NCBI GenBank assembly: GCA_002338515.1
Contig: DDIL01000005.1
Location: 1-32,000 of the forward strand
DNA from: Glaciecola sp. UBA1851
Lineage (GTDB): Bacteria > Pseudomonadota > Gammaproteobacteria > Enterobacterales > Alteromonadaceae
DNA: 32,000 bases
Direction of reading: 5' to 3'
Shown here one piece after another: positions 98 through 25,953 of this stretch. The notes beneath the pieces are model-generated. The model made no database searches and had not been told where the DNA came from. It saw nothing but the letters and a program-made list of their open reading frames with translations. Positions within the stretch are counted from its first letter, which is position 1; each line of letters starts with the position of its first letter. Made by a program: the position numbers and the translations under genes.

Positions 98-211
98 ATG
101 TGGTATTTCACTTGGATATTAGGCGTTTTATTAGCGTGTTCATTCGGCATTATTAATGCGATGTGGCTCGAGTCTACAGAAGATATGGATAGAGCGGACG
201 AATCGCAATGA
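98..211 (+). CDS. cydX: cytochrome bd oxidase small subunit CydX (37 aa)
   Basis: Absent from the ORF track because it is too short. An aaggag Shine-Dalgarno sits at 86-91 and the ATG at 98. Translation is MWYFTWILGVLLACSFGIINAMWLESTEDMDRADESQ. The N-terminus matches E. coli CydX (MWYFAWILGTLLACSFG...). Stop tga 209-211 overlaps the cydD ATG at 208 (atga). Confidence 0.85.
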   Translation: MWYFTWILGVLLACSFGIINAMWLESTEDMDRADESQ

Positions 212-1818
212 ACACACATGCAACATCACCTGCTAGCGATGCCAATACATGGTTAACGCAACAGTCAAAGCAAGCTAGAGTGTCACAGCTGCAGGTGTTC
301 GTTGTTCGTTTAGCACAGCTTGCTGCTCAAATTAGTGCATTTTGGTTTTTGGCTTCCATTGTGCATCGCGTTGTGGTTCAGCAGCAAGCCGTCTTTTTCT
401 CAGAACTTTCCCCTCTTATTGTTGCCATGCTGTGTTGGGCGATCTTAGCTTACTTGCAAGATTGGATGGGTAATAGGATGAAGTCTATTCTAGAGCAGTC
501 GCTTGAAGACTCAATCCATCAACGATTAAAGTCAAATCAAGTTGCGCTAACTAGACGATTCTCAAGCACGTTTTGGCAGCAGCTTTTCTTAAACAATATT
601 AGCGATATCGGCGACTACTTAACCCAATATAGTGTGCAAAAATGGTTAGCCGGTATTGGTCCTGTTGTGGTGCTATTGGTTATTACCCCAATCAACTACG
701 TAGTGGCAATTGCACTGTTTGTCACTATGCCAGTAGTGCCACTTTTTATGATTTTAGTCGGTAAGGGTGCGGCGTCATTACATCGAAAGCACTTTGTTGC
801 CTTAGAAAGACTCGGCGATATGTTTTCTGACCGACTAAAAGCGTTATCTTTGATAACCGTTACTGGTCAACATCATAATCAAGTCAATCGATTGAGTGAT
901 GCGAGTGAAATTGTTAACCGTAAAACTATGCAAGTTGTATCAGTGGCGTTTTTATCTACTACGGTACTAGACTTTTTTGCAACCGTATCTATTGCCTTGG
1001 TAGCTGTCTTTATTGGCTTCACCATGTTAGGCGAGTTATCAATTGGCCCGCAAATTACTTTGCACTCTGGTTTGTTTATGCTCTTAGTATCCCCTTTACT
1101 ATTTTCTGAAATGCGAACTTTAGGGCGTTTTTATCACCAAAAATCAAAGGCTGAGGCTGCTGCACAGCGATTTGTTGACGTGTTTAAGAACGACTCTATT
1201 CAGCCGAAAAATTCGACATTCAATGGTATTGCTTGGCTCAATTTTAAAGTTTGTGAGCCATCCATTAAGGCGAAGCAATTATGTATTAATGAAAAAGATT
1301 GGATTTATCTTATTGGGCCATCGGGTAGCGGTAAAACGGTTTTACTTGAAGCACTATGTGGTTTTAGGCAAGCCAGTCATTCCTTAAGCGGCAATGTCGC
1401 CTTATTGAGTCAGCATGTTGCTTTACTTGATAAATCCTTGCGCAATAATTTAACGTTAGGGAAACTGAATTTATCGGATAGCCAGTTAATTCAATCGTTA
1501 GAGGAAGTTGGTTTAAATGAATGGTATACGCATTTAACCGAAGGCTTAGATGCTGAGCTTTCTGATTATCCAGCCCTTTCTGGCGGTGAAGCTCAACGTT
1601 TAGCACTGGCAAGAATACTACTTCATAATAAAGATATTGTGTTGTTAGACGAACCTACCGCCCATTTAACCGAGAAGCAGCATAACGATTTATCAAAACT
1701 CATTCACAAAAAATTGTATTCAAAAACGGTAATTTGGGCGTCTCATAAGCCTTTACCTAGTGACTGGTTTTGCCAGAGTTGGTTTATTAATTCTGGCGTG
1801 ATTGAGGTGACAAAATGA
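208..1818 (+). CDS. cydD: ABC transporter CydD (thiol reductant/heme exporter needed for cytochrome bd assembly)
   Basis: Hydrophobic N-terminal transmembrane half plus an ABC ATPase. Motifs: Walker A GPSGSGKT, signature LSGGEAQRLALAR, Walker B IVLLDEPT. It directly follows cydB-cydX and pairs with a second half-transporter through an ATGA overlap. Confidence 0.85.
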   Translation: MNTHATSPASDANTWLTQQSKQARVSQLQVFVVRLAQLAAQISAFWFLASIVHRVVVQQQAVFFSELSPLIVAMLCWAILAYLQDWMGNRMKSILEQSLEDSIHQRLKSNQVALTRRFSSTFWQQLFLNNISDIGDYLTQYSVQKWLAGIGPVVVLLVITPINYVVAIALFVTMPVVPLFMILVGKGAASLHRKHFVALERLGDMFSDRLKALSLITVTGQHHNQVNRLSDASEIVNRKTMQVVSVAFLSTTVLDFFATVSIALVAVFIGFTMLGELSIGPQITLHSGLFMLLVSPLLFSEMRTLGRFYHQKSKAEAAAQRFVDVFKNDSIQPKNSTFNGIAWLNFKVCEPSIKAKQLCINEKDWIYLIGPSGSGKTVLLEALCGFRQASHSLSGNVALLSQHVALLDKSLRNNLTLGKLNLSDSQLIQSLEEVGLNEWYTHLTEGLDAELSDYPALSGGEAQRLALARILLHNKDIVLLDEPTAHLTEKQHNDLSKLIHKKLYSKTVIWASHKPLPSDWFCQSWFINSGVIEVTK

Positions 1819-3413
1819 ACTCAGTAAAAAGGCAACCATCGGCCTTTAAACTCTTTGTAACCCTTGCTTTAGCCATTGTGCACTTGCTTGCTGGATTTTC
1901 AATTTTGTTGGTCTCATCTTGGTTCATTGCCGCTTGCAGTATTGCAGGTGTTGGTTTTAACTATATGCTTCCAGCTGTTGTAATAAGAGCGCTAGCCTTA
2001 ATTAGAATAAGCTCTGGCTATTTTTCTATGCTAGTTGGTCATTATCACTTGCTCTCTAATTTGGCGATGATTCGTTTAAATCTTTTTGCCAGTTTAGAAA
2101 ATAAGGTAACTGTTTCAAGACAGTCGTCGTTAGACGCACTTAATCATCAAAGTGAGGAAGTAGCGTCCATTTGGATTTCATGGGTAGGGCAAAACGCAGG
2201 GGCATTATTATCACTGGTTTGTCTAAATGTAATTAGCTTTATTTTTATCCCATCAATAAGCAACATTATTGTGTTGTTTAGTGGTGCTTTTGTCATTATT
2301 TACTGTGTTTTATTATGGTCAATGATTCAAAGTAGTAGCGAGTTGGTAAGTGCTAAAGAGGCGTTTCAATTTGATATGGTCAAACATATTGAATGCGCTT
2401 CTTTATGGCATTTATACCAAGAATACGATGTAAATCCTCCTCGATTACGTGTACTAATTGATTTAGAAAAAAAGTTAAAATTAAGAGTAAGACTGGCGGC
2501 ATTTAGTTTGTTTGTTGCTGCTATTGCGTGTATTTCCGTTATTTTTTCTTTATACAGTGCACCGCTCTTAGGAAATCCGATATTTGTGCTTATCCCAATA
2601 ACATTACTTAGCATTAACGATTGGTTGAGCCCAACTTTAAATAGTCTAAATCAGTTGTTGAAATTTAAAGAAGCAAAAAAAGCAATTGATTCAACAAGTA
2701 AAAATTTAAGCGTTCTAAAAACAAACCATGCAAGTATTTTAGGTTTTGAGCTTCGAAATTTTAGACCTTGCAACACAAGAATGAATGCAATCAATGCCCG
2801 TTTTAATTCTAGTGGGGCACATATTATTACTGGTGGTTCAGGGTCGGGTAAAAGTCGTTTTTTACAAGCTTTAATGGGGTTAATTCCTTTTGAAGGAAAC
2901 CGAGGTGTGCTTACATCGAATACAACAACTAACCTTCTTTCTACAACTAACAATACATTATTAACTGATTGCTTTTATGTTGAGCAGTTCCCTTATATTT
3001 TATCGGATACCTTGCGTAGTAACCTATTAATTGTGAACACGCAGGCAACCGAGAACCAGCTTATTCATTGTCTGAATTTGGTGGGCTTAGGTCATTTGAG
3101 AAATTTAGAAGAATGGCTAGGTGAAAATGGAAGACAACTTTCAGGTGGAGAGATGAAACGAATAGGATTAGCAAGAGCATTGCTATCAAAAAGTAGTGCA
3201 ATTTTAATAGATGAGCCATTTGAAGCTCTAGATCAAAGTAATATTCGTTTAGTTGTGAAATTATTAAATAAACTAGCGATGGAAAAAATAATTTTGGTGG
3301 CCACTCATATTATTCCCAAAGAGCTTAACATTGGGCAACGTGTTTCTTTAGACGATAACTTTTCCGATATACAAAGCAACACTTTATCCACAGGGGTATT
3401 AAAAAATGAATAA
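1815..3413 (+). CDS. cydC: ABC transporter CydC
   Basis: Transmembrane half plus an ABC ATPase. Motifs: Walker A GGSGSGKS, signature LSGGEMKRIGLAR, Walker B ILIDEPFEALD. ATGA overlap with cydD. Confidence 0.8.
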   Translation: MNSVKRQPSAFKLFVTLALAIVHLLAGFSILLVSSWFIAACSIAGVGFNYMLPAVVIRALALIRISSGYFSMLVGHYHLLSNLAMIRLNLFASLENKVTVSRQSSLDALNHQSEEVASIWISWVGQNAGALLSLVCLNVISFIFIPSISNIIVLFSGAFVIIYCVLLWSMIQSSSELVSAKEAFQFDMVKHIECASLWHLYQEYDVNPPRLRVLIDLEKKLKLRVRLAAFSLFVAAIACISVIFSLYSAPLLGNPIFVLIPITLLSINDWLSPTLNSLNQLLKFKEAKKAIDSTSKNLSVLKTNHASILGFELRNFRPCNTRMNAINARFNSSGAHIITGGSGSGKSRFLQALMGLIPFEGNRGVLTSNTTTNLLSTTNNTLLTDCFYVEQFPYILSDTLRSNLLIVNTQATENQLIHCLNLVGLGHLRNLEEWLGENGRQLSGGEMKRIGLARALLSKSSAILIDEPFEALDQSNIRLVVKLLNKLAMEKIILVATHIIPKELNIGQRVSLDDNFSDIQSNTLSTGVLKNE

Positions 3414-4278
3414 ATTAGGCGTGCGTCCATTTTTTGATAAAGAGACTCATACTGTTACTTATGTTGTAACAGACAATGCAAGTAAGCATGCTGCTGTTAT
3501 CGACCCGGTACTCAATTTCAACGCTAGTACAGGTGGCCTTTGTTCTTGTTCTGCAGACAAAATAATTGAGTATTTAGATGATAATAACTTGCAGCTTGAA
3601 TGGATATTAGAAACTCATGCGCATTCTGATCACTTAACGGCTTCAAAATATCTAAAGGAAAAACGTGGTGGACAAATAGGGATAGGCGAACATATTAAAA
3701 AAGTACAAAGTACGTTTAAAAAGACCTTCAATTATAATAGTGAGATGCCTTGTGATGGCAGCCAATTTGACCAATTGTTTGAAGATGGTGAAGTTATCTA
3801 TTTAGGTCATATAGCCATTGAAATTATGCATACTCCAGGTCACACCCCAGCATGTGTTAGCTATAAATTTGAAGATACAATATTTGTAGGAGACACCTTG
3901 TTTATGCCCGACTATGGAACGGCAAGAGCAGACTTTCCCAATGGAAGTGCTAGGTCACTGTATCAGTCAATTCAGCGTATTTTATCCTTACCTAATTCTA
4001 CAAGAATGTTTGTTGGTCACGACTATAAAACCAATACAAAACGAAATTATGCTTGGGAAACATCAGTACTTCAACAAAAGCGAAATAATATTCATTTAAA
4101 AGATGGTATGACGGAACAAGCGTTCATTAAACTGCGAAATGCTAAAGATGCCACGCTAGAGGTTCCCAAACTTTTAATGTCGGCTATGCAGGTAAATATT
4201 AGAGCAGGGTGTTTACCAGAAAAAGAAGATAATGGGGTCAGCTACTTAAAAATGCCATTAGTTTTAGAATTAAGTTAA
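3406..4278 (+). CDS. MBL-fold metallohydrolase, persulfide dioxygenase (ETHE1/Blh)-like
   Basis: HxHxDH metal motif (THAHSDH). N-terminal FFDKETHTVTYVV..AAVIDPV and GDTLFMPDYGTARADFPNGSARSLYQSI resemble persulfide dioxygenases. The ATG at 3406 overlaps the cydC stop (3411-3413). The next gene is a DUF442 protein, and the two are fused in Blh proteins. Confidence 0.65.
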   Translation: MNKLGVRPFFDKETHTVTYVVTDNASKHAAVIDPVLNFNASTGGLCSCSADKIIEYLDDNNLQLEWILETHAHSDHLTASKYLKEKRGGQIGIGEHIKKVQSTFKKTFNYNSEMPCDGSQFDQLFEDGEVIYLGHIAIEIMHTPGHTPACVSYKFEDTIFVGDTLFMPDYGTARADFPNGSARSLYQSIQRILSLPNSTRMFVGHDYKTNTKRNYAWETSVLQQKRNNIHLKDGMTEQAFIKLRNAKDATLEVPKLLMSAMQVNIRAGCLPEKEDNGVSYLKMPLVLELS

Positions 4279-4295
4279 AAAATAGGAGAGAAACC

Positions 4296-4706
4296 ATGAC
4301 GTTTGCATTAATTACTGATGAATTTTCAGTTTCAGGCGAGTTAACCGAGCAAGACTTTACTACTTTAAATAAGCTAGGCGTTTCTATGCTAATCAATGCT
4401 AGACCTGATAACGAAAATGATGGTCAGAAAAATGATGAAGATTTCAAAATATTGTGTGAAGCACATGGTATTGAATATGTACATGTACCCGTAAAGCCGG
4501 GTCAGTATTCACAAAATGATATTGAAAAAGTGGCAAACGCATTTAATGCGGCCAGTGGGAAAGTGCATGGGCTTTGTAAAACAGGCGCAAGAGCAGCGCA
4601 TTTATGGGCGCTCTCACAAAAAGAAGCGAAGTGTTTTGACGAACTACAGAAAAAAGCTCAAGCGCAAGGTTACGACTTAACTATGATTAAAAATCATTTT
4701 GAATAG
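4296..4706 (+). CDS. DUF442/TIGR01244-type phosphatase-fold (sulfurtransferase-like) protein
   Basis: 136 aa, with SVSGELTEQDF..L...GVSMLINARPDNE and a CX4R loop (HGLCKTGARAAHLWAL), typical of the DUF442 domain found in Blh proteins. An aggaga Shine-Dalgarno lies upstream. Confidence 0.65.
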   Translation: MTFALITDEFSVSGELTEQDFTTLNKLGVSMLINARPDNENDGQKNDEDFKILCEAHGIEYVHVPVKPGQYSQNDIEKVANAFNAASGKVHGLCKTGARAAHLWALSQKEAKCFDELQKKAQAQGYDLTMIKNHFE

Positions 4707-4709
4707 ACT

Positions 4710-5129
4710 ATGAAAAAACTAATTATTAGCTTGTTACTTTATGTTTCGTTTAGTGTTTTGGCCAATCAGAATGCTACTGAAATAGACAATAGAATAGTGA
4801 TTGAGTTAGAGCAGGAGCAAAAAGTGTTTGTTCTCTTACGTATGCGAAAAATGCTTGAAACTCTCACTAAAATGCAGGTTAAGTTACTTGAAGAAAACCT
4901 AGAGGCAACTCATGACCTAGCGTTAGAATTAATGAGGTTCACCGCTAAAAATCATCCCGATGGGCTAAGAGAGAGGATGCCTTTGCCGTTTCGAGCGATG
5001 AGTCAGTCTATGAACAAAAGCTGGAAAAAATTAAGTAAAAAGCAAACCAATAGCAAGGTTATTCAGCAAGAAATCATTAGCATCATGTCTACTTGTAATG
5101 CTTGTCATCAATCTTATAGAATTGAGTAA
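4710..5129 (+). CDS. periplasmic class II c-type cytochrome (cytochrome c-prime/c556-like)
   Basis: Signal peptide MKKLIISLLLYVSFSVLANQ. About 120 mature residues that look helical. A single CXXCH heme motif (CNACH) lies 9 residues from the C-terminus, which is the class II cytochrome c arrangement. Confidence 0.55.
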   Translation: MKKLIISLLLYVSFSVLANQNATEIDNRIVIELEQEQKVFVLLRMRKMLETLTKMQVKLLEENLEATHDLALELMRFTAKNHPDGLRERMPLPFRAMSQSMNKSWKKLSKKQTNSKVIQQEIISIMSTCNACHQSYRIE

Positions 5130-5131
5130 TA

Positions 5132-5434
5132 ATGAATATAAAAGAGTTTGAAGTTCAAAATGATAGTGCATTAATAAGCTTAAAAGCAATGGCGAATAAA
5201 TACAGATTGGGTATCTTATATTTATTAACCGAGCGTGATCAAAGCGTAAACGATTTAGCTTTGACTCTAGAATTACCGCAGCCGGTGGTGTCCCAACACC
5301 TTAAAGTATTGAAGGCTGCTGATATGGTATGTTTCACTAAAGACGGTGCGCAGCATAGTTATCGATTAGATAAAAAACAACTTGTCATGTCAGCCATGAT
5401 TTTCAAATTGTTTAACATAGAAACAGTCATTTAA
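5132..5434 (+). CDS. ArsR/SmtB-family winged-helix transcriptional regulator
   Basis: 100 aa. KALANKYRLGILYLL...SVNDLA..LELPQPVVSQHLKVLKAADMV is the ArsR HTH signature. Its ATG lies 2 nt after the preceding stop. Confidence 0.8.
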   Translation: MNIKEFEVQNDSALISLKAMANKYRLGILYLLTERDQSVNDLALTLELPQPVVSQHLKVLKAADMVCFTKDGAQHSYRLDKKQLVMSAMIFKLFNIETVI

Positions 5435-5535: not shown

Positions 5536-6435
5536 ATGATGAGAAATATTATTCTTTTTGGCGCGGGTGCAGGCTCCAAAAATTATGTGCAGGCATGCAA
5601 AGACAATATCTTAGCGATTGCTGATAACAACTCAGGCAGAGTAGGCGAAACGATAGACAGTATCCCTATTATTGCGCCAAGTAGTATTGGTAATTATGCG
5701 TTTGATAATATTGTGATTACTTCGCAATGGGCTGAGGATATTAAGCTTCAACTTGTCAATGAGCTAGGCATACCAATAAGTGATATTGAGGTGCCTGCTA
5801 AGTTTGAGCTTAAAGGAAAAGCCCCAGCTTTTTCGGACCCTGCCACTCTGGAATTAGCGAACAATATATTAAAATCATTGTGTGATAGTGCATATAAAAA
5901 CAGTATCGAACTCTACATTGACTTCGGTACTTTGCTAGGTGTAGCGCGAGATAATACAGTGATGCCATGGGATGATGACATTGATTTTGCTATCACTAAA
6001 GTACCAGACCAAACCTTTCTTAATTGGCTTACTCAATGGCGAACCAGCCATCATTTACCCGTTACATTCGAGGTAGAAACCCGCAAAGATAAACATGACG
6101 ACTTTATTGATTTTGTCCTGAAATTTAGTCACCCCGATTATCAATCATTTCTGACAACTATATGCTACCGGAAAGAAGTGGACGGTCAGTCTTTGCATAT
6201 GCCGAGTTTAGGGCAATGGTTTGCCCCTCAAGTACATTTTTCTTCGCCTGACTATATTGAATGGCAGGGAATTAATGTCCAAGTACCTCATGATTACGAG
6301 AATTATCTTGAGTTTGTTTACGGTGATTGGAAAACACCGAAAAAGAACATGAGCATGACCGATTACGCGAATTTAAACGAATTAAACCACGAAGATGTAA
6401 CCGCTATGGGGATGGTTAGTGAAACAATTAAATAG
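5536..6435 (+). CDS. LicD-family phospho(no)-headgroup transferase with an N-terminal Rossmann-like extension
   Basis: [24 protein letters not shown] matches the LicD motif (G.LLG..R......PWDDD.D). I prefer the ATG-ATG at 5536 over the track's TTG start at 5485. The first ~95 aa ([13 protein letters not shown]...IAD....G..I..IP) resemble NeuD/PglD-type N-domains. Confidence 0.7.
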
Positions 6436-7732
6436 ACAAAATGAAAAGTTAGTTTATGTTGGAATGAGCGCTGACTTAGTGCATCCAGGACATATGAATA
6501 TTTTGAAAGTGGCTGCCGATTATGGTGATTTAGTGGTGGGTTTATTGACCGACAAAGCCATTGCATCATACAAACGATTACCCTATATGGCTTTTGAACA
6601 GCGCAAAGAAGTGATAGAAAATATTAAAGGCGTAACGCAAGTAATTGCCCAAGATACGCTTGATTATCGTCCGAATTTAGAAGCGGTGAAACCAGATTAT
6701 GTTGTGCATGGAGATGATTGGAAAACAGGGGTACAGGCGAAAACGCGGCAACAAGTATTAGATGTTTTAGCGCAATGGGGAGGCGAACTGATAGAACCCT
6801 CTTATACTCACGGTATTTCATCTTCTGCATTGAACCAATCACTAAAAGAAATTGGCACCACGCCTGATATTCGAAGGGGTAGACTAAAGCGTTTAATTCA
6901 AGCTAAGCCTATTGTCAGGATCATGGAATCTCATAATGCACTAAGTGGACTAATTGTTGAAAATGTAAAAGCGGATAATGGTGTTGAATTTGACGGTATG
7001 TGGAGTAGTTCGCTTACCGATTCTACATCAAAAGGTAAACCAGACATTGAAGCGGTAGATGTGAGTTCGCGTATGACTACCGTTAATGAAATTTTTGAAG
7101 TCACCACCAAACCTATGATTTATGACGCTGATACAGGTGGTATTCCAGAACACTTTGCCTTTACCGTTAGAACCCTTGAGCGTACAGGCATTAGTGCTGT
7201 TATTATTGAAGACAAAACCGGATTAAAGAAAAACTCTTTGTTTGGTAATGATGTGGCGCAAACTCAAGATACAATAGAAGGATTTTCTTTAAAAATTGCC
7301 ACAGGCAAAAAAGCGCAAGTGACGAAAGACTTTATGATTATTGCCCGCATTGAAAGTTTAATTCTTGATAAAGGATTAGATGATGCGATTGCCAGAGCAT
7401 TTGCATATATAAAGGCTGGAGCGGATGGCATAATGATCCACTCTCGACAATCGTCCCCAGATGAAATTATTGCGTTTTGTGAACAAATTCGAGCAGAGCA
7501 CACCGATATTCCAATTATTGTTGTACCCACTTCTTTTAATCAAATTACTGCCAAAGAATTAAGTGAAGTAGGTGTAAACGTTGTTATTTATGCCAATCAT
7601 ATGCTTCGCGCAGCCTATCCTGGGATGATGAATGTTGCCCAATCAATTCTTAGTCACGACAGAAGCTTTGAAGCGGAACATCAGTTATTATCTATAAAAG
7701 AAATACTCAATTTGATACCGGGTACTAAATAA
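6419..7732 (+). CDS. pepM: bifunctional phosphonate cytidylyltransferase (PntC-like) / phosphoenolpyruvate mutase
   Basis: The N-terminal ~140 aa have the cytidylyltransferase fold, with [16 protein letters not shown] (HxGH at 6482-6493). The C-terminal ~290 aa belong to the PEP mutase/isocitrate lyase superfamily and carry the PEP-mutase-specific EDKX5NS motif ([10 protein letters not shown], 7208-7237). GTG start at 6419; the first in-frame ATG (6464) would remove the first beta-strand. Confidence 0.85.
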
Positions 7733-9884: not shown

Positions 9885-9946
9885 GGTGTGTTGCTCTTTT
9901 CTCGCTGTGGAAACAGCAAAGTAAAGGGTGAGTAATAAGGAATGGC

Positions 9947-12210: not shown

Positions 12211-12885
12211 ATGGCTATTCTTACAACGCGTCACCCGGGGCGCCCAAAACCTAGTGAAATAGGTGCACACGACGCAAGAAGTGCATTAATTGATTCTGCT
12301 CGTTTGTGTTTTTCGACTCATCCTTATGCAAAGGTAACAACACGGATGCTTGCAACCCAAGCTGGTGTAAACGCAGCGTTAATTCGCTATTATTTTTTGA
12401 ATAAAGAAGGCTTGTATCAGCAAATGTTAGAGTCGGTGGCTGCCTTATTTCAACGTAAAGTAATGGAATATTTTGAAGCCTCACCCAGCCACCCTTTTGA
12501 GGCTATTTTTAGAGCGCACAGAGCAATGGCAAGCGACAGCCCAGATATTCCTAAGCTTATTTTTAAAGAATTAGCCTTTAATGAAGGGAAAAGCAGAAAG
12601 CTGGTGTTGGACTGTGTTGCTAAACCTAATAAGGCATTCATGTTGGCTCTATTGCAAAAATTTAAAGGCTCACAGCACGATGATTTACCAACACTCAGAG
12701 AAGATTTCGATCCATCTATTTTATTGCTCAGTGTGTTATCAATGTCACTGATGCCTTTGTTGTTACAAGAAGCCATTGCTGAGGTTGATGGCACGACTTT
12801 TAATCAAGAACATATAGAAAAAATGATTTGGCAGAATACTCAGATGATCCAATTTGGATGTTTAGCTAAAGGAGAAGATACATGA
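12211..12885 (+). CDS. TetR/AcrR-family transcriptional regulator
   Basis: N-terminal HTH YAKVTTRMLATQAGVNAALIRYYFLNKEGLY. ATGA overlap with the downstream efflux adaptor gene. Confidence 0.85.
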   Translation: MAILTTRHPGRPKPSEIGAHDARSALIDSARLCFSTHPYAKVTTRMLATQAGVNAALIRYYFLNKEGLYQQMLESVAALFQRKVMEYFEASPSHPFEAIFRAHRAMASDSPDIPKLIFKELAFNEGKSRKLVLDCVAKPNKAFMLALLQKFKGSQHDDLPTLREDFDPSILLLSVLSMSLMPLLLQEAIAEVDGTTFNQEHIEKMIWQNTQMIQFGCLAKGEDT

Positions 12886-14240
12886 GCTCATCGCTGTTTT
12901 TAAAAAAACGAATTTTCTTCATTCTTTTATTTGCAGGCATTGCCTTTGTTGTATTTATTGCATCGCTCAAATCAGGCCCTGTTAAACAACCTGATAGGCT
13001 AAATATTCCTATTGTAGAAGTGGCTAAGGTAGAATTATTGACCATCGACCCTTTGATTACAGGTTTTGGTAGAGCCTTTGCCCACGATCAGTGGCAAGCT
13101 ATTAGTGAAGTAAGTGGCCGCGTTATATATCGTCACCCTGAGCTTGAAGTAGGCAGAACGTTAGAAAAAGGCACAACATTAATTAGAATTGACCCGGTTG
13201 ATTATGAGCTTGCGGTTGCGCAAAGTGTATCTGCTTTGAAACAAGCTCAGCTAGAACGTGAGCGTATTGATTTAAATGAACAGACCTTTCAACAAAACAT
13301 GTTAATTGCTGAAACACAGCTGGAGCTAGCTAAAAATGAGTTAAATCGAAAAGCTGATTTAAATAAAAAAGGGCTAGTATCTAGCTCTGAATTAGAAGCT
13401 CAGCGAAAAGTTGTTTTGCAGCAAGAGCAACAGGTTTGGGAAGCAAAGCAAAGATTAGAGTTGGTGCCGTCTGATAAAGATTTGGCTGATGCCAATATCA
13501 ACTCAGCAAGGGCAAAGCTTACCGAATCAGAACGAAAATTATCGCGTACCGAAGTTGTCATGCCTTTTACGGGAAGAGTTAGCCAAGTAAATATTGCACG
13601 TGACCAACTGGTTAATCCTCAACAGCTAATGATTGAAGCATATGATCTTAGCTTAATGGAAGTAACAGCAAATGTATCGGTTCAAGATATTTCTACGATG
13701 TTACAAAGCACGTCTGGTGAAGCGCGATCTTTTAATGAAAGTATGCCCGGTCAAAATATGCCAGATATTCGAAATTTAGGGCTAAGTGCACAAGTAATTT
13801 ACGCTTTAGGTGATAATACCTTTACTTGGCTAGCTAGAGTTGACCGCCTATCAGTTGGTATTAATGTGCAAGCCAATACAATTGGGATAACCTCTCAAAT
13901 TACCAATAACCCAACCAATTACAACCCAAAAACTAATCCGCCATTACTAAAAGATATGTATGTTCAGGTGGATATTTCCGCTCCTGGAATAGAAAACTTA
14001 GTTGTGCCTAGCAGCGCAATTCATAGCAAAAGGCTATTTGTATTAAACGAAGAAAACCAGTTAAGTTTTGTACCGGTGAGGGTGTTGTATTCGTTAGATG
14101 GATTAAGTGCAATCAAAGCGGATATCAAAGTAGGCGAACGAGTTATTACATCAGACTTGCTAGCGCCGGTTGAAGGAATGAAAGTGCAGCCTGCAGGAGA
14201 GGAAAAGAATGCAGAACTAATTAGAAGGGAAGGGGAATGA
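12882..14240 (+). CDS. RND efflux periplasmic adaptor (membrane fusion protein, HlyD family)
   Basis: N-terminal TM anchor, a long coiled-coil hairpin region (AQLERERIDL...ELEAQRKVVLQQEQQVWEAKQRLE), and barrel-sandwich and beta-barrel segments. Overlaps both neighbouring genes. Confidence 0.85.
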   Translation: MSSSLFLKKRIFFILLFAGIAFVVFIASLKSGPVKQPDRLNIPIVEVAKVELLTIDPLITGFGRAFAHDQWQAISEVSGRVIYRHPELEVGRTLEKGTTLIRIDPVDYELAVAQSVSALKQAQLERERIDLNEQTFQQNMLIAETQLELAKNELNRKADLNKKGLVSSSELEAQRKVVLQQEQQVWEAKQRLELVPSDKDLADANINSARAKLTESERKLSRTEVVMPFTGRVSQVNIARDQLVNPQQLMIEAYDLSLMEVTANVSVQDISTMLQSTSGEARSFNESMPGQNMPDIRNLGLSAQVIYALGDNTFTWLARVDRLSVGINVQANTIGITSQITNNPTNYNPKTNPPLLKDMYVQVDISAPGIENLVVPSSAIHSKRLFVLNEENQLSFVPVRVLYSLDGLSAIKADIKVGERVITSDLLAPVEGMKVQPAGEEKNAELIRREGE

Positions 14241-17200
14241 TAGCATTTTTTGCCAAACACCCCACTGCCGCAAACTTATTGATGGCAATTATTATTATTT
14301 TAGGCCTAACCGCATTACCTGATATCAAGCGTGAAACTTTCCCTGACTTTCAAGCGAAAACTGTGCAAATTACTATTGTGTATCCAGGAGCGACACCTGC
14401 CGAAGCATCAAGCGCGCTTTGTTTGCCTATTGAAGATGCAATTGATGGCCTTGACCAACTAGACGAGCTTACGTGCGAAGCAAGAGAAAACATCGCCATT
14501 GCCACGGTTGATATGCAAGAAGGTGGGAATATAGATAAATTAGTGGCAGAAGTAAAAAATGAAATAGATGCTATTGATAGTTTCCCTGATGGCATTGAAC
14601 TACCTATTGTAGAAGAGAAGGGCAGAACAGATGAAGTGATTCATCTAGCTATTCAGTCAGATATAAATGAAGTTGAATTAAAAGAATATGCCGAAACAAT
14701 TAAAGACAAATTAAAAAGGATAGATGGCGTAGCAAATATAGAAGTTGGCGGTTTTTCAGATCATCAACTGCGAGTTAACTTATCGCTATCAAAGCTTAGA
14801 GAATATGGTTTAACTACACAAGATGTAGCTGAGTCACTGGCCAATCAAAATTTAAAAATGCCAGGAGGGAATTTAGAAGGTAATGATAAAACTGTGCTGT
14901 TACGTTTTGATCAACAGCGAGTCACTGCTAACTTGTTAGAAGAGTTAGTTATATTTGGCGGTGCGGATGGCGGGCAAATTAAACTGAAAGAATTAGGTTT
15001 TGTTGAAGATAGGTTTGAAGATGAAGAGGTGCACATACGTTTTAACGGTAAACGTGCGGCTTTATTGAAAATTAGTAAAAGCAAAGCTGAAGATGCCATT
15101 GATATTGCCACCGAAGTCATGCAATTTGTTGATAAAGAAAAAGCCATGTTACCCTCTGGCATAAGCATGACTTTAACAAATAACACCTCCACCATTATTC
15201 AAGATAGATTAAGCATGTTGTTAACTAATGGTGCGCAAGGAATATTGTTGGTATTTGCGGTAATGTGGCTATTCTTTTCATATCGTTATGCCTTTTGGGT
15301 ATCAATGGGATTACCGGTTTCGTTTTTAGGAACACTATTTTTAATCTCGATTTTGGGCATTAGCATTAACATGATTTCGATGGTGGCGATGTTAATGGCA
15401 ATTGGCATTTTAATGGACGACGCCATTGTGATTGCTGAAAGTATCGCTACCCAAGTCGCTAAAAATGGCGATGTAGATAAGGGTGCTATAGATGGCGTAA
15501 AGTTGGTGCTTCCCGGTGTTGTATCATCATTCCTAACAACTTGCGCTATTTTTGGTGGAATGGCTTTTATATCAGGTGATATCGGGCAAGTGTTAAAAGT
15601 TATTCCTATGGTATTGCTGCTTACATTAAGTGTGTCTTTAATTGAAGCTTTTCTGATTTTACCTAATCATTTAGTGCATTCATTACACAAACATAAAGAA
15701 ACTAATGAAACGGGGTTTAAGCTCAAGTTTACGCAAAAATTTGAAACATTCAGAGATGTATATTTGGTGAATGTCGTAGAAAAAGTAGTAACATATCGTT
15801 ACGCGTTTTTAGGAGGTTTATTTGTCGCATTTTTATTAAGCTTATCGCTATTTGTTGGTGGCTTATTGAAGTTTAAAGCCTTCCCCAATACAGAAGGTGA
15901 CATACTCGAAGCACGCTTAATACTTGCGTCGGGTACACCATTTGATAAAACGCAAATTGTAGTGAAACAAATTACTGAGGCAGCCAATACACTTAATCGT
16001 GAATTCTCCAAGCAAGAGCCTGATAACCAAAGTTTAATAAAAAATATAACGGTTGAATATAATCAAAATAGGGATGCATTCTCGCAAGGCGCTCATTTAG
16101 CGACGGTAAGAATGGAACTTCAAACCGTTGAAGACCGCATAACTAGTATTTATGACGTGCACAAACGCTGGCAAGAATTAGTCGGATCTATGCCTTCTAT
16201 CGTGTCTTTATCTATAACAGAGCCGAGTATTGGACCAGCAGGTAGGGCAATTGAAATTCGTTTAAGTGGCGTTAATGTAGACCAACTGATGCAGCATGCA
16301 TTAGCGATTAAAAGCGAGCTAAATCAATATCAAGGTGTAAATAATCTATTGCTTGATACGCGCGAGGGCAAAGAAGAGCTAATCATATCAATGAAACCCG
16401 GCGCACTTTCATTTCAAGTGAATGGTAGCATCATTGCTAATCAATTGCGCGGCGCATATAACGGTATAAAAGTAGATGATATACAAAGAGGGAGTGAGCA
16501 AATTGAATTAGATGTGCGACTTCAAGATGCCGATAAACTCAATATCAATCAGTTAAATAATTTTCCTATTATTTTACCCGATGGTACCGAGATACCCCTG
16601 TCGGCTGTCGCTAAAATTCAACAAGAGCGCGGAGTATCGAGAATTAATAGAATAGAAGGGCAGCCAACCGTTACTATTATTGGCGATGTTGACCCATTGC
16701 TAGCAAATACTGCTGAAGTGCTTGCAGATATAGACCAAAATTTTATTCAACCCTTGCTACAACAGCAACCTAATTTACAGGTTAAGTTTGAAGGTGAAGC
16801 CGAAGAAGGGAACAAAACATCCGCATCAATAGGGCAGAAGTTTCTGTTAGGTTTAGTCGGTATTTTTATTATTCTAAGCTATCAGTTTAAAAGCTACTTT
16901 GAGCCTGTCATGGTAATGACCGCCATACCACTTGCACTTATAGGCGTATTGTGGGGCCATTTTCTTTTAGGTTTTGACATGACTATGCCAAGCATTGTGG
17001 GCTTTATATCGTTAGCTGGGATAGTGGTAAATGATTCTATTTTATTGGTGGTATTTATTAAGCAACACATGCAAGAAGGAATGGATGCCCATAAAGCAGC
17101 TGTTATGGCAGCAAAAGAACGCTTTAGAGCTGTATTTATTACAAGCGCTACAACCATAGCTGGCACTTTTCCACTGCTACTAGAAACAAGCACTCAAGCA

Positions 17201-17353
17201 CAAGTATTGCAGCCTTTAGTGGTCAGTTTAATATTTGGGATTATTGCATCCACATGCTTAATACTATTTCTACTCCCCGCGCTTTATGTGATTTTACAAG
17301 ACTTTGGATTAGCGAGTAATGCGCATATGCAGGAACCTGACACTTTTGATTAA
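14237..17353 (+). CDS. RND efflux permease (AcrB/AcrD/AcrF family)
   Basis: 1038 aa with a duplicated architecture of two large periplasmic loops and twelve hydrophobic segments. The start (FFAKHPTAANLLM) and the SMGLPVSF...MIAMLMAIGILMDDAIV region are typical of the family. Confidence 0.9.
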   Translation: MIAFFAKHPTAANLLMAIIIILGLTALPDIKRETFPDFQAKTVQITIVYPGATPAEASSALCLPIEDAIDGLDQLDELTCEARENIAIATVDMQEGGNIDKLVAEVKNEIDAIDSFPDGIELPIVEEKGRTDEVIHLAIQSDINEVELKEYAETIKDKLKRIDGVANIEVGGFSDHQLRVNLSLSKLREYGLTTQDVAESLANQNLKMPGGNLEGNDKTVLLRFDQQRVTANLLEELVIFGGADGGQIKLKELGFVEDRFEDEEVHIRFNGKRAALLKISKSKAEDAIDIATEVMQFVDKEKAMLPSGISMTLTNNTSTIIQDRLSMLLTNGAQGILLVFAVMWLFFSYRYAFWVSMGLPVSFLGTLFLISILGISINMISMVAMLMAIGILMDDAIVIAESIATQVAKNGDVDKGAIDGVKLVLPGVVSSFLTTCAIFGGMAFISGDIGQVLKVIPMVLLLTLSVSLIEAFLILPNHLVHSLHKHKETNETGFKLKFTQKFETFRDVYLVNVVEKVVTYRYAFLGGLFVAFLLSLSLFVGGLLKFKAFPNTEGDILEARLILASGTPFDKTQIVVKQITEAANTLNREFSKQEPDNQSLIKNITVEYNQNRDAFSQGAHLATVRMELQTVEDRITSIYDVHKRWQELVGSMPSIVSLSITEPSIGPAGRAIEIRLSGVNVDQLMQHALAIKSELNQYQGVNNLLLDTREGKEELIISMKPGALSFQVNGSIIANQLRGAYNGIKVDDIQRGSEQIELDVRLQDADKLNINQLNNFPIILPDGTEIPLSAVAKIQQERGVSRINRIEGQPTVTIIGDVDPLLANTAEVLADIDQNFIQPLLQQQPNLQVKFEGEAEEGNKTSASIGQKFLLGLVGIFIILSYQFKSYFEPVMVMTAIPLALIGVLWGHFLLGFDMTMPSIVGFISLAGIVVNDSILLVVFIKQHMQEGMDAHKAAVMAAKERFRAVFITSATTIAGTFPLLLETSTQAQVLQPLVVSLIFGIIASTCLILFLLPALYVILQDFGLASNAHMQEPDTFD

Positions 17354-17630
17354 TTTTTAACTGTACGAAAATTACATAACCACTATTTGAAACTGCCATC
17401 AAACACTATTTATGTGTTTATTTTCATGCACAATAGTTTGTTAAATAATTGTTTTTTTGATTGTTAAAAATACATATATATTTAATAAAATTCTAATCAT
17501 ATGTTTTTATTGATTTTTTTAATTTAAAACAAAATTTAGTAGATTTAAAACTTAAAAAAAATATAAATTTATGGGGTTATTTCCTTCATTTAGCTTGTAA
17601 AGGACCATAACAAATGTTAATAATATGTAA

Positions 17631-17924: not shown

Positions 17925-20906
17925 ATGAAAAACAGCAAAAATAATATAACCTTCGAGAATCAGCGCCCTCATTGGATGCGATTCAAAAAAACTATGGTAG
18001 CTGTGGGTATTAGTGCAGCCGTTGCACATACCCCTCTTTATGTGCATGCTCAAGAAACCTCAGAACAAGCGACTGAAGAAGAGTCTGCAGAGGTTATTAA
18101 TGTTAGAGGGCAACGACAAAGTTTGACTGCTGCCCAAGAACTTAAACGAAATGCTGATACCTTCCTTGACGCAATTTCAGCATCAGATTTAGGCGCTCTT
18201 CCTGATGCTAGTGTTGTTGAAGCATTACAACGTGTTCCAGGTATTACAATAGAGCGGTTTGCTGCACCTGATGACCCAGACCATTTCTCAACGGAGGGCA
18301 GTGATGCAACACTTCGTGGCCTTCCTCAAACTCGTACCGGAATTAACGGGCGCGATAGCGTTGCCGCAGATTCATCAAATGGTTTAGGTTTCGATGACAT
18401 TTCACCTCAATTGCTTGGAAGTGTTGAAATTTATAAAAACCAAACTGCTGATATGATTGAAGGGGGTATTGCAGGTACTATTAACTTGAATACCCGCAAA
18501 CCTTTTGATTCTTCATCTCGAATTCTTAATTTTGAGTTGCAAGGCAGTGAAGGTAACTTATCAAAAGAACCCACATACGGGTTTTCTGGTTTATATTCTG
18601 ATGTATTTGACGTTTCAAGTGGTGAGGTAGGTGTATTGGTGAGCTATAGCTCGGTAGACCTAACGTTTAGAGCCGATGGGGCGGAGCTAGGCCAGCATAA
18701 TTTAGTGGCTGATGCTGCGGGTGCCGGGCAAGACAGATGGACACCTATCAATGCAGGCGTTCGCTCAACTACTACTGATCGTGAACGTGAAGCTGCCTCC
18801 TTTACTTTGCAGTATCAAAATTCTGACGAAACCTTTTTATCTACGTTTGAATATATTCTATCAGACTCAGCAACAAATTGGTCAGAGCATGCATTCTTTT
18901 CAGATGATCAAGCTTATACAAGCTTAGGTGATGATGTTACGTTTGGTAACGAATCATTTACTGGCGGTACACTACAAGGTATTCAAGATGGCTTAGGCCC
19001 GCAAACACGCAAAAGTTCAAGCGAAGAAAAGCTAGAAGAATTTACTTTTAACGTTGCATATAAGCCAACTGATCGTTTAACACTTGAGTTTGATGTGCAA
19101 TATGTTGATGCTACTACCGACGTAGTAGATTTATCAGTATTTGGCGGCATTATTCCTAGGCTTGGCGGTATCGATATTGAAGTAGACGCAATGGGCGATA
19201 CTCCAGTTGTTGGCTTTAGGGCACCCTCTGGTTCTGGCCTAAGCGATGCTGAATTTTTCAGCGACCCTAAGAACTATTTCTATCGTGCAGCCATGGACCA
19301 CGTTGAAGAATCTGAAGGCGATCAAAGTGCATTTCAGTTTGATGTAGACTATGAACTAGAGCATGACATGCTAGATTCAGTTGAAGTAGGCGCGCGTTAT
19401 GCTGAGCGTGATCAAACAACACGTTGGTCAACCTATAATTGGCAAAACTTATCTGCCGAATGGGCCGGTGGTTGGGTTGATTTTAATGGTGACAGAATAC
19501 AACCATCTTGGAATGGCGATACAGCATTTCAGCCAACGGGTGAAACCTTGGATACCCCCGGATTTGAGTCATTTGCCTATCCGGGCTTTCACAATGGTAA
19601 TGCTGGAAGTCCTATAAACAGCCTGTTTGCGTCGTTTAATAGTGTACAAAGCTATGATACATTTTTACAAAGCTATTCTGCCTTTAACTTTCCAAGTTTG
19701 GGTACAAGGGGGGATGTGGTAGATGGCAGTATTTATCGCCCTGCTGAGCTTAACCGTGTGGTAGAGGAAAACACGGCGTTTTACGCTAAGTTAAATTTTG
19801 GTGGTGATTCTCGTGTCTCGGGCAACGTAGGATTAAGGTACGTCAACGTAGATACGTCGGTAGATGGTGGCGAAACTTTCCCTGTTCAGCTATCTGACAA
19901 TCTTGTATTAACTGCGGATGAAATGGCGTTTTTCAATGATGCGAGTATTGTTAGGTCAACCAGCAACAGTTACAGCGCTGTATTGCCTAGTTTGAACGTA
20001 AAATACCTTCTTGGCGATGATTTACTTCTTCGTTTTGCTGCATCAAAATCTGTGGCGTTTGCTGACACGGGTAACTTACGGTACAACTATAACTACACAA
20101 CAGATACAATTGAAATTGACCCAGATGTTGATATGTCACCTGTACGCATTGATCAAATAGAAAGGCGAAGTGGCAATCCATTCTTAGCTCCCATGGAGTC
20201 AATTGACTTAGACTTGTCAGTAGAGTGGTACTTTGATGAGGGTGATTCACTTACAGTGGGTGTTTTCCATAAAGATATTGAAGGTTTTTTCTCAAACGAT
20301 ACTTTCAGTCAGCAGGTAACCAACAATGGAGTAACTTTACCTGTACAGGTAAGTACCACAATTAATGTAGGCAGTGGCACTTTAAAAGGTCTAGAAATAG
20401 GCTATCAGCAGTTCTTTGACGAGTTGCCGGGTTTATTTAGTAATTTAGGCTTACAATTCAACGCAACATTCTTAAGGGAAAGTGGTACACCTAATCAAAA
20501 TACCCGTCCTGTCCAATCAGGTGGGGAAGACGATGTGGCCAGAGCCGAATTGCCGTTTGAAGGTTTGCCTCTGCAAGGTTTGTCTGAAACAACATACAAT
20601 ATTGTGGGTTTGTATGAAGATGATGTTATTTCTGCTCGTTTAGCTTATAACTATCGCTCAGATTATTTATTGACTGTTCGTCAAACTAACCTCGGTATAC
20701 CTATTTTTAACCAGGCTCGAGGTCAACTCGATGGGTCTGCTTTTTATAGTATTACAGATAATATTGAAGTGGGTATTCAGGGGCAAAACTTAACCAAGTC
20801 TGAGTCAAATACGCGTATGCAAGTGGACCAGGAAGGGACAACGGTGGTCAGATCGTCATTTACGAATGACCGAAGATTATCGTTAATTGTAAGAGGTCGA
20901 TTCTAA
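17925..20906 (+). CDS. TonB-dependent outer-membrane receptor (carbohydrate/oligosaccharide type)
   Basis: Signal peptide ending VHAQE. Acidic linker and TonB-box-like EVINVRGQRQS. Plug motifs (DAISASDLGALPDASVVEALQRVPGITIER, GSVEIYKNQTADMIEGGIAGTINLNTRKPF). Long beta-barrel ending in ...LIVRGRF with a terminal Phe. Shine-Dalgarno aggaag. Confidence 0.9.
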   Translation: MKNSKNNITFENQRPHWMRFKKTMVAVGISAAVAHTPLYVHAQETSEQATEEESAEVINVRGQRQSLTAAQELKRNADTFLDAISASDLGALPDASVVEALQRVPGITIERFAAPDDPDHFSTEGSDATLRGLPQTRTGINGRDSVAADSSNGLGFDDISPQLLGSVEIYKNQTADMIEGGIAGTINLNTRKPFDSSSRILNFELQGSEGNLSKEPTYGFSGLYSDVFDVSSGEVGVLVSYSSVDLTFRADGAELGQHNLVADAAGAGQDRWTPINAGVRSTTTDREREAASFTLQYQNSDETFLSTFEYILSDSATNWSEHAFFSDDQAYTSLGDDVTFGNESFTGGTLQGIQDGLGPQTRKSSSEEKLEEFTFNVAYKPTDRLTLEFDVQYVDATTDVVDLSVFGGIIPRLGGIDIEVDAMGDTPVVGFRAPSGSGLSDAEFFSDPKNYFYRAAMDHVEESEGDQSAFQFDVDYELEHDMLDSVEVGARYAERDQTTRWSTYNWQNLSAEWAGGWVDFNGDRIQPSWNGDTAFQPTGETLDTPGFESFAYPGFHNGNAGSPINSLFASFNSVQSYDTFLQSYSAFNFPSLGTRGDVVDGSIYRPAELNRVVEENTAFYAKLNFGGDSRVSGNVGLRYVNVDTSVDGGETFPVQLSDNLVLTADEMAFFNDASIVRSTSNSYSAVLPSLNVKYLLGDDLLLRFAASKSVAFADTGNLRYNYNYTTDTIEIDPDVDMSPVRIDQIERRSGNPFLAPMESIDLDLSVEWYFDEGDSLTVGVFHKDIEGFFSNDTFSQQVTNNGVTLPVQVSTTINVGSGTLKGLEIGYQQFFDELPGLFSNLGLQFNATFLRESGTPNQNTRPVQSGGEDDVARAELPFEGLPLQGLSETTYNIVGLYEDDVISARLAYNYRSDYLLTVRQTNLGIPIFNQARGQLDGSAFYSITDNIEVGIQGQNLTKSESNTRMQVDQEGTTVVRSSFTNDRRLSLIVRGRF

Positions 20907-20925
20907 ACATCCCCTTCTCAAATTT

Positions 20926-20970
20926 AGCTGTAGGTGCTATGTTTATGGTATCTACAGCTTGTTTGTTTTT
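20926..20970 (+). terminator. possible leaky intrinsic terminator/attenuator between the receptor and the halogenase-fold genes
   Basis: An 8-bp stem, agctgtag (20926-20933) pairing with ctacagct (20952-20959), followed by tgtttgttttt. The 18-nt loop is long, so the structure is weak. Confidence 0.3.
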
Positions 20971-21008
20971 GGCGGCGTAATTACCTAAGAGTCTATTTTA
21001 AAGAGTGT

Positions 21009-24167: not shown

Positions 24168-24175
24168 TTATATTT

Positions 24176-25738: not shown

Positions 25739-25953
25739 CCTGAACTCGGGATAAGCAAACCCGTCCAGCAGCGCTATTAGAGCGAATAATTGCGTTACCA
25801 AACTAAGCAATAGAATAACTTTAATTGACTTTACCGCCTTGTTCTTCACTTTAATACAATCACTGAATTATGATATTAATTTGCTTATCTCGAATTGAGG
25901 TTAAATTATACCATTAGTATTGTTTTAGAATTAAAGAGGATATTACACCGTGC

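Follow-up and report, generated by a model that had tools for sequence, protein, structure and literature searches.

A Fom1-type cytidylyltransferase–PEP mutase fusion in a predicted four-gene cassette for hydroxyethylphosphonate activation and transfer in an uncultured marine gammaproteobacterium

A stretch of 32,000 nucleotides from Glaciecola sp. UBA1851 (contig DDIL01000005.1, positions 1 to 32,000 of the forward strand; hereafter the window, or 32 kb) encodes a fusion of an N-terminal cytidylyltransferase (CyTase) to a C-terminal phosphoenolpyruvate (PEP) mutase (Ppm). Judged from its sequence, the fusion is a real and intact bifunctional enzyme of the Fom1 type. The gene lies in a four-gene operon that quite probably makes 2-hydroxyethylphosphonate linked to cytidine monophosphate (CMP-HEP), from which a LicD-like transferase then places 2-hydroxyethylphosphonate (HEP) on a surface acceptor. 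The predicted route includes: (i) isomerization of PEP to phosphonopyruvate by the C-terminal domain of the fusion, (ii) irreversible decarboxylation of phosphonopyruvate to phosphonoacetaldehyde by a separate phosphonopyruvate decarboxylase (Ppd), (iii) reduction of phosphonoacetaldehyde to HEP by an Fe-dependent alcohol dehydrogenase (Fe-ADH), (iv) conversion of HEP and cytidine triphosphate (CTP) to CMP-HEP and pyrophosphate (PPi) by the N-terminal domain of the fusion, and (v) most likely, release of CMP from CMP-HEP as its HEP-phosphonyl group is passed to a hydroxyl on a surface acceptor by the LicD/FKRP-like enzyme encoded immediately upstream. By family context, the acceptor could be a glycan, possibly one that bears nonulosonic acid or is attached to flagellin.

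Steps (i) and (iv) are predicted from strong homology to characterised enzymes, steps (ii) and (iii) from family assignment and conserved synteny, and step (v), in which both the LicD reaction and its acceptor are proposed, from its fold, its motif and the coupling of the genes in the operon. What the domains are, their catalytic motifs, the start codon, the arrangement of the operon and the conserved fusion-Ppd-ADH triad are read directly from the sequences. The features of the cassette are as follows, with positions numbered from the first letter of the window:

5539..6435, + strand: LicD-like phospho(no)transferase with a C2185-like_N (Rossmann-like) and a LicD/FKRP-type catalytic domain; proposed CMP-HEP:acceptor HEP-phosphonyl transferase
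6419..7732, + strand: Fom1-type fusion open reading frame (ORF), N-terminal cytidylyltransferase and C-terminal PEP mutase; 437 amino acids, GTG start
6443..6853, + strand: CyTase domain, amino acids 9-145; predicted to convert CTP and HEP to CMP-HEP and PPi, from phmmer and Foldseek matches to PDB 5X3D
6482..6493, + strand: HxGH nucleotidyltransferase signature, H22-P-G-H25; invariant in 30 homologues
6806..6826, + strand: T-H-G-I-S-S-S, amino acids 130-136, aligned to 'TPGISST' of Fom1; G132, S134 and S135 invariant in 30 homologues
6854..6877, + strand: short inter-domain linker, amino acids 146-153, GTTPDIRR; the gap between two structure alignments, with a low predicted local distance difference test (pLDDT) score
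6878..7714, + strand: PEP mutase domain, amino acids 154-432, predicted to interconvert PEP and phosphonopyruvate, from TIGR02320 and structure alignments
7208..7237, + strand: EDKX5NS motif, amino acids 264-273; motif as defined in PMC6697681
7732..8802, + strand: Ppd, a thiamine diphosphate enzyme, PF02776 and PF02775
8799..9884, + strand: Fe-ADH similar to PhpC/FomC/PsrA, PF00465 and PF25137; predicted to reduce phosphonoacetaldehyde to HEP

Reading frame and domain layout of the fusion

A single uninterrupted ORF carries both domains of the fusion, PF01467 with its HxGH signature and Ppm. Pfam places PF01467 (CTP_transf_like) at amino acids 17-138 (E=7.5e-14) and PF13714 (PEP_mutase) at amino acids 156-411 (E=3.8e-57), and alignments to solved structures set the domain limits at amino acids 9-145 and 154-432. 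A preliminary description of this DNA, made from the letters alone, had drawn the limits at about 1-140 and about 150-437, near the aligned ones. The fusion that it reported is borne out as genuine by Pfam, TIGR02320 and a match to the Fom1 CyTase (E=3.3e-57), matches well beyond what chance would give, and the EDKX5NS motif is located exactly where it had been placed, at 7208-7237. The string LVHPGH, given there as 6482-6493, is correct for its HPGH core; the full six residues span 6476-6493, a trivial offset.

The GTG at 6419 is the sole start that keeps the fold, since homologue starts, the structure model, an upstream stop and the lack of alternatives all agree. Almost all homologues (119 of 120) begin 2-6 residues ahead of a conserved VYVG strand, and strand beta-1 spans amino acids 11-16 in the model of the fusion. 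An in-frame TAA lies upstream at 6398-6400, and the frame between 6401 and 6463 has no ATG, GTG or TTG other than GTG 6419, which is preceded by GGGGA at 6408-6412. A start at ATG 6464, which had been raised as a possibility that would truncate the fold, corresponds to Met16 within the conserved segment and is refuted by the homologue starts.

The cytidylyltransferase domain

In a phmmer search, the N-terminal domain matches PDB 5X3D, the CyTase domain of Fom1, with E=3.3e-57 and 87 of 137 residues identical (63.5%). In the structure library, 5X3D is entered as the Fom1 CyTase domain of Streptomyces wedmorensis in its HEP-CMP-bound form. Foldseek superposes the model of the fusion on the same structure with a TMt of 0.91 and a root-mean-square deviation of 2.0 Å. 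The PDB matches to ECT, TagD and CCT are much weaker (E 1e-12 to 1e-5). The T-H-G-I-S-S-S segment at amino acids 130-136 presumably corresponds to RTxGISTT, a motif of the GCT/CCT cytidylyltransferase family. Of the Pfam families, only PF01467 is matched by the N-terminal domain at E<=0.001; PF12804 is not.

The HPGH and GxSS residues and about 60 more positions of the N-terminal domain are invariant across 30 homologues. Across phyla, identity is 62-79% for the N-terminal domain and 61-82% for the mutase domain. As the N-terminal domain is thus conserved at least as well as the mutase domain, the alignments indicate that both domains are under purifying selection. The 63.5% identity to Fom1 falls inside the 62-79% range of the N-terminal domains of the 80 ADH-linked homologous loci described below; thus, Fom1 belongs to this orthologous group as an unexceptional member. 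Specificity of the domain for HEP is predicted from this identity together with the presence of the reductase.

The PEP mutase domain

The C-terminal domain scores 410.2 bits against the NCBIfam PEP mutase equivalog TIGR02320, compared to a cutoff of 319.55. Alignments of some 280 residues to the crystal structures of PEP mutase from Mytilus (1M1B/1PYM) and Streptomyces platensis (5UNC) give E ~1e-42 and 35-36% identity, and 5UNC and 1PYM are also the best Foldseek matches of the domain. The active site of the Mytilus enzyme includes D58, D85, D87, E114, K120, N122, S123, R159 and H190, plus W44, S46 and L48. The first nine are all kept in the fusion, as D209, D236, D238, E264, K270, N272, S273, R310 and H341, and the latter three are kept as W195, S197 and L199. 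[quoted passage not shown] By family score, motif and active-site residues, the domain has the sequence characteristics of a PEP mutase (EC 5.4.2.9).

The operon and the supply of HEP

The genes of the cassette are ordered licD-like, fusion, Ppd and Fe-ADH. They overlap by 17 nucleotides (licD-like/fusion), 1 nucleotide (fusion/Ppd, TAATG) and 4 nucleotides (Ppd/Fe-ADH, ATGA), overlaps that indicate one operon. The genes for HEP supply, Ppd and a phosphonoacetaldehyde reductase, are in this way encoded beside the fusion. The best NCBIfam families of the two enzymes are TIGR03297 (Ppyr-DeCO2ase) for Ppd and TIGR03405 (Phn_Fe-ADH) for Fe-ADH. The PDB matches of Ppd are limited to 9IZ3, a 'putative phosphonopyruvate decarboxylase alpha/beta subunit'.

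Beyond the four genes, no phosphonate-metabolism gene is present in the 32 kb. The scan of the window took in nearly every ORF of 95-100 amino acids or more. Among these there is no aminotransferase (AEPT/PhnW), and none encodes a Fom3-like radical SAM enzyme, Fom4/HppE, FomD, FomA/B, MpnS or HepD. Choline kinase and ethanolamine kinase are likewise absent from the window. A 2-aminoethylphosphonate (AEP) pathway is rejected for the cassette, as are the fosfomycin-like and methylphosphonate pathways, the genes that each requires being absent from the window.

The preliminary description had noted the pairing of the fusion with a reductase rather than an aminotransferase, which the Fe-ADH gene and the ORF scan confirm. 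Its deduction that the substrate of the N-terminal domain is not AEP is probably right, given the Fe-ADH cluster and the identity to Fom1. It had also treated the reductase pairing as a departure, a view that fails because Fom1, which cytidylylates HEP, is the founding and characterised case of such a pairing (Cho et al. 2017, as cited in PMC6697681).

A further proposal, that through the fusion the unfavourable mutase reaction is coupled to a later activating step, does not hold. The fused activities are two steps apart, the two intervening reactions are run by separate proteins (Ppd and Fe-ADH) and flux needs no covalent fusion; thus, thermodynamic coupling does not follow from the architecture. 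The irreversible decarboxylation catalyzed by Ppd is what pulls the unfavourable equilibrium of PEP mutase. The fusion is probably a convenience of co-expression or assembly rather than a thermodynamic device.

The LicD-like transferase

The licD-like ORF opens mechanically at TTG 5485, and homologue lengths favour ATG 5539 as its start. The protein matches PF04991 with 45.9 bits compared to a cutoff of 22.6, and about 100 homologues all combine PF22674 (C2185-like_N) with PF04991. Residues D128, G130, W144, D145, D146, D147 and D149 (W-D-D-D-x-D) are invariant in the homologues. The AlphaFold2 model has a pLDDT of 94.5 and a Rossmann-like N-terminal domain, and its best PDB matches by Foldseek are FKRP with Mg, CMP and CDP-ribitol (E ~1e-7, TMq 0.39-0.44). 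FKRP is a CDP-ribitol ribitol-phosphate transferase that was crystallised with these ligands. This modelled fold and the invariant residues support an enzyme that would take a CMP-linked donor and move a phospho(no)-alcohol to the hydroxyl of an acceptor.

The context of this LicD subfamily was inspected at six loci outside the window, with flagellin, FliD and Maf sought within 10 kb:

L082, JGI (Joint Genome Institute) metagenome: flagellin/FliD/Maf yes; NeuB yes; HEP cassette yes
L083, Methylotuvimicrobium: flagellin/FliD/Maf yes; NeuB yes; HEP cassette no
L084, Pseudomonas: flagellin/FliD/Maf yes; NeuB yes; HEP cassette no
L087, Shewanella baltica: flagellin/FliD/Maf no; NeuB no; HEP cassette yes
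L088, Aestuariibacter: flagellin/FliD/Maf no; NeuB yes; HEP cassette yes
L089, Paraglaciecola: flagellin/FliD/Maf yes; NeuB yes; HEP cassette yes

Flagellar genes are thus found in four of the six contexts, NeuB in five and the HEP cassette in four. Because of these NeuB and flagellar neighbours, the contexts suggest that the acceptor class is a glycan that contains nonulosonic acid, often a flagellin glycan; for the window itself, this acceptor is an inference. The fuller proposal, in which the cassette feeds CMP-HEP to the LicD subfamily, the natural acceptor is a nonulosonic-acid glycan on flagellin or another surface glycoconjugate and an HEP ester results, is tentative and, as a whole, rather unlikely to be right in every part. 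In the searchable literature, which is incomplete, no HEP modification of flagellar glycans and no paper linking the cassette or the LicD subfamily to such islands was found.

The island neighbours of the subfamily (L082:800-17608, L083:1-12658, L084:1-18918, L088:1-17742 and L089:1017-17874) include FliD, flagellin, FlaG, FliS, Maf/MptE-like proteins, PseB/C/F/G/I and NeuB, and the licD-like gene in such islands is often immediately beside a fusion-Ppd-ADH cassette. In the same islands, C2185-like_N is also fused to glycosyltransferases (GT2, Glyco_trans_1_2) and occurs as a stand-alone ORF of 129 amino acids (L082:14533-16143; L087:10927-11316 and 12630-13988; L089:12136-13362). The domain may be a shared module for recognition of an acceptor or partner.

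Comparison with known systems

The N-terminally fused CyTase of Fom1 moves CMP from CTP to HEP (Cho et al. 2017, as cited in PMC6697681). According to Rice et al. (2019, PMC6697681), 59.5% of bona fide PEP mutases are fused to another domain, and PF01467 is the fused partner in 23.6% of PEP mutases, a type 'exemplified by the Fom1 CyTase'. Like Fom1 of Streptomyces wedmorensis/S. fradiae (PEP mutase EC 5.4.2.9), the fusion of the window has an N-terminal PF01467 CyTase and a C-terminal PEP mutase, and its operon partners are alike, a Fom2-like Ppd and a FomC-like Fe-ADH, as is the predicted reaction of CTP and HEP to CMP-HEP. The cytidylyltransferase activity of Fom1 is EC 2.7.7.104. Unlike the Fom1 cluster, the window is without Fom3, Fom4, FomD and FomA/B and encodes a LicD-like transferase instead; thus, CMP-HEP is probably the end donor for a conjugate rather than a transient intermediate. 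The host also differs, being an uncultured marine Alteromonadales-like gammaproteobacterium.

The fusions of PntC to Ppm share with the cassette the fusion to Ppm and the logic of a pathway in which a phosphonate first receives a nucleotidyl group and is then passed to the cell surface by a LicD-type enzyme (PMC6697681). By contrast, the characterised PntCs (Tde1415 and Ari1348) prefer AEP and belong to the LicC-like family PF12804 (PMC6697681), unlike the PF01467 domain of the window and its cluster predicted to make HEP. The preliminary description was right that fusions of cytidylyltransferase to PEP mutase are reported by Rice et al. (2019). The steps after cytidylyl activation remain unknown according to Rice et al. 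(PMC6697681).

HEP-type phosphonoglycan clusters are described from Stackebrandtia nassauensis and Glycomyces (Yu et al. 2014, as cited in PMC8942020), and pepM-aepY-phpC neighbourhoods with a lipopolysaccharide cholinephosphotransferase are also known (Lockwood et al. 2022, PMC9381506). The cassette shares with the HEP phosphonoglycan clusters a Ppm-Ppd-PhpC core and the expected product, HEP esterified to a polymer. It differs in its minimal set of four genes without adjacent glycan genes and in its Ppd and LicD, which are of Campylobacterota type. Similarly to the LicD/FKRP/fukutin CDP-alcohol phosphotransferases, the transferase of the window has a LicD Pfam match, an invariant acidic cluster of DxD type and a fold match to FKRP bound to CMP/CDP-ribitol. 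Unlike canonical LicD, it carries the extra C2185-like_N domain and its donor is presumably a CMP-phosphonate; in sequence it resembles canonical LicD only over the initial third of the profile.

Distribution and origin of the cassette

At least 8,000 database homologues share the two-domain architecture of the fusion, some of which are named 'phosphoenolpyruvate phosphomutase / 2-hydroxyethylphosphonate cytidylyltransferase' by JGI. A genome scan provided 80 loci that encode the fusion (64-81% identity), and their neighbours were identified by tblastn and ORF clustering. The hosts are Campylobacterota, Gammaproteobacteria, Desulfobacterota, Bacteroidota, Ignavibacteria, Patescibacteria, Actinomycetota and archaea. 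The order fusion-Ppd-ADH is kept in about 70 of the 80 loci, and about 49 have a gene for a candidate CMP-phosphonate transferase no more than 8 kb away, as LicD (27 loci) or a TagF-like protein of PF04464 (23 loci). These two families, both of which use CDP- or CMP-activated donors, are the commonest neighbours after the triad. Further neighbours are genes of sugar modification, among them NeuB/PseI, PseG, a PseF-type cytidylyltransferase, GNAT, DegT and sets of ACP/AMP-ligase/SDR and LuxC/LuxE genes. The order licD-fusion-ppd-adh is identical in three loci (L003, L006 and L082). The Actinomycetota loci include a metagenome-assembled genome (MAG) of Stackebrandtia (L058) with the same fusion plus ADH, and an exopolysaccharide decorated with HEP is isolated from this genus (PMC8942020).

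Several individual loci depart from the common arrangement or carry further genes. In a Spirochaetota MAG (L009:8004-10622), a fusion with 78% identity is followed by a TagF-like gene, and neither Ppd nor Fe-ADH is detectable within 8 kb of the fusion, an exception to the conserved triad. In a Halarcobacter MAG (L002:4313-8008), the cassette is directly preceded by genes for a tandem pair of LicD paralogues, for a fusion of HAD-phosphatase and NTP_transf_3 (416 amino acids) and for a methyltransferase, a gene set that resembles the type-A flagellin glycan genes of Clostridioides difficile (phospho-N-methylthreonine on N-acetylglucosamine). In L082, which encodes the closest relative of the LicD-like protein, a B12-binding radical SAM protein (16145-17608, - strand, 487 amino acids, PF02310 and PF04055) lies three genes downstream of the cassette. 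Fom3, the enzyme that methylates CMP-HEP in fosfomycin biosynthesis, is of the same enzyme class; a tblastn search with the L082 protein finds no match in the window. In Shewanella baltica (L087), the HEP cassette and LicD/TagF-like genes lie between a fragment of an rve transposase (1-237) and a phage-type integrase (18553-19821), an arrangement that would fit a mobile island as their carrier.

The cassette of the window is most like those of Campylobacterota, as seen in the identities of its four proteins:

Fusion: 80-82% to Campylobacterota; 64-71% to most others, and up to 79% in a few loci outside Campylobacterota
Ppd: 62-65% to Campylobacterota loci; about 25% to other loci
ADH: 49-56% to Campylobacterota loci; lower to other loci
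LicD: about 40% to Campylobacterota loci; similar to others, 23-39% where present

The RND pump of the host is nearest to Alteromonadales, with up to 59% identity to named proteins of Pseudoalteromonas and Aliiglaciecola. These similarities point to horizontal movement of a Campylobacterota-type cassette into the host; under the tentative proposal given above for the LicD subfamily, the unit would in this way have left a glycosylation island. At the loci with the nearest relatives of the RND pump (L085 and L086), synteny of the flanks is not kept beyond the TetR-MFP-RND operon, and the G+C fraction of the cassette (0.38-0.40) is like that of the rest of the window. As synteny with relatives is not conserved and composition is unremarkable, horizontal movement is unproven.

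Promoter and terminator matches around the cassette are at or below the expectation from shuffled sequence. The sole flanking repeat is a direct repeat of 15 nucleotides with 14 of 15 matching (5123-5137, TGAGTAATAATGAAT; 9929-9943, TGAGTAATAAGGAAT), which brackets the ArsR gene and the cassette. The repeat is probably at chance level, with about one such repeat expected per 6 kb by a rough estimate.

Weighing of alternative explanations

Several results weigh against a cassette for transfer of HEP to the surface. The AlphaFold2 model of the whole fusion is moderate (pLDDT 69, predicted TM-score 0.57) and stems from a shallow alignment of sequences about 80% identical, and it supports no argument for channelling. 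Both supply enzymes score below their equivalog cutoffs, Ppd with 198 bits compared to 312.5 for TIGR03297 and Fe-ADH with 357 bits compared to 423.7 for TIGR03405; the second-best family of Fe-ADH reaches only 177 bits. In the Pfam match of the LicD-like protein, just 3-66 of the 227 profile positions are covered. The 32 kb window holds no pse/neu or flagellar gene and none for a glycosyltransferase and thus gives no indication of the acceptor. Finally, aminotransferase (AEP) clusters too can contain PF01467-Ppm fusions (PMC8942020), so that fold alone does not establish specificity.

This last point opens the way to an N-terminal domain that activates a substrate other than HEP, i.e., AEP, phosphoethanolamine, phosphocholine or glycerol-3-phosphate, as do PntC, ECT, CCT and TagD, with the Fe-ADH playing no part in the supply of that substrate. 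PF01467 includes ECT, CCT and glycerol-3-phosphate cytidylyltransferases, which are seen among the weaker PDB matches. Such a substrate is nevertheless improbable: the identity to the Fom1 CyTase stands against E-values of 1e-7 to 1e-12 for ECT and TagD, the window is without an aminotransferase, choline kinase or ethanolamine kinase, and in about 70 of the 80 loci the Ppd gene is followed directly by that of an Fe-ADH of phosphonate type. The domain itself is hardly likely to be vestigial, or to be truncated by translation from ATG 6464, either of which would leave a protein that functions as PEP mutase alone. The GTG start and one homologue (P0084) called from an internal Met would fit this view; the starts of the other homologues upstream of VYVG and the invariance of HPGH, GxSS and about 60 other positions, with conservation at least equal to that of the mutase domain, speak against it.

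What becomes of CMP-HEP is a separate matter. In the sole characterised case, fosfomycin biosynthesis by Streptomyces, CMP-HEP is an intermediate, and the relative L082 has its B12-binding radical SAM gene near the cassette. A transient role for CMP-HEP on the way to a small-molecule phosphonate (fosfomycin-like or of methylphosphonate type), rather than as a surface donor, is very unlikely here, as the window has none of the Fom3-like radical SAM, HppE/Fom4, FomD, FomA/B, MpnS and HepD genes, translation of the LicD-type transferase is coupled to that of the fusion and the cassette lies among glycan genes in relatives. If the LicD-like enzyme does act as proposed in step (v), its acceptor could instead be a lipid (a glycolipid or a head group linked to diacylglycerol) and its product a phosphonolipid. 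The best NCBIfam match of the enzyme, a Mycoplasma diacylglycerol/glycolipid cholinephosphotransferase (Mf1; 58 bits, far under the cutoff), and the lack of glycan genes in the window lean toward this variant. It is unlikely, since the subfamily adjoins NeuB/Pse genes in five of six contexts and flagellin/FliD/Maf in four, and lipid-synthesis genes are adjacent in none of the six. Thus, synthesis of CMP-HEP and transfer of HEP to a surface acceptor, with a glycan favoured by family context, is preferred.

Flanking genes of the window

The flanks of the cassette are unrelated to phosphonate metabolism. Upstream lie cydDC-like ABC transporter genes (208-3413), which are followed, with overlapping or near-abutting junctions, by a set of four genes (3406-5434). 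Their products are a protein of metallo-beta-lactamase fold, another that is BLH phosphatase-like, a small one that weakly matches cytochrome c' and a regulator of the ArsR/HTH_5 kind. This set resembles the sulfide-detoxification operons of BigR/Blh type. The flanks also include a convergent GGDEF gene and the TetR-MFP-RND operon. A protein of 452 amino acids encoded between TetR and the RND pump (12882-14240) has a marginal Pfam match (HlyD_3, E=3e-5) and should be a divergent membrane-fusion adaptor. The region 17925-31961 encodes a TonB-dependent receptor, GH5, GH10, a beta-xylosidase-like GH43 and an MFS_2 sugar transporter, together with three tandem paralogues of the 'tryptophan halogenase' family (543, 533 and 520 amino acids). 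It looks like a xylan/hemicellulose utilisation locus of the kind found in marine Alteromonadales.

Significance

Fusions of this type, with both activities and their prevalence, are known from the literature and have passed into automatic annotation, and the protein of the window is an ordinary further member of the family. The mildly new lead is limited to the association of the HEP cassette and a LicD subfamily with islands for pseudaminic-acid/flagellin glycosylation. The cassette is a clean, minimal set of four genes for HEP activation and transfer that can be used to probe phosphonyl transfer of the LicD type, and its link to LicD and flagellin/pseudaminic-acid genes is a testable lead to a new kind of glycan decoration. 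With this genome, an uncultured marine polysaccharide degrader becomes a further candidate source of the HEP esters found in marine dissolved organic matter. If the tentative proposal for the LicD subfamily is true, such cassettes in marine heterotrophs could add to the HEP esters of marine high-molecular-weight dissolved organic phosphorus.

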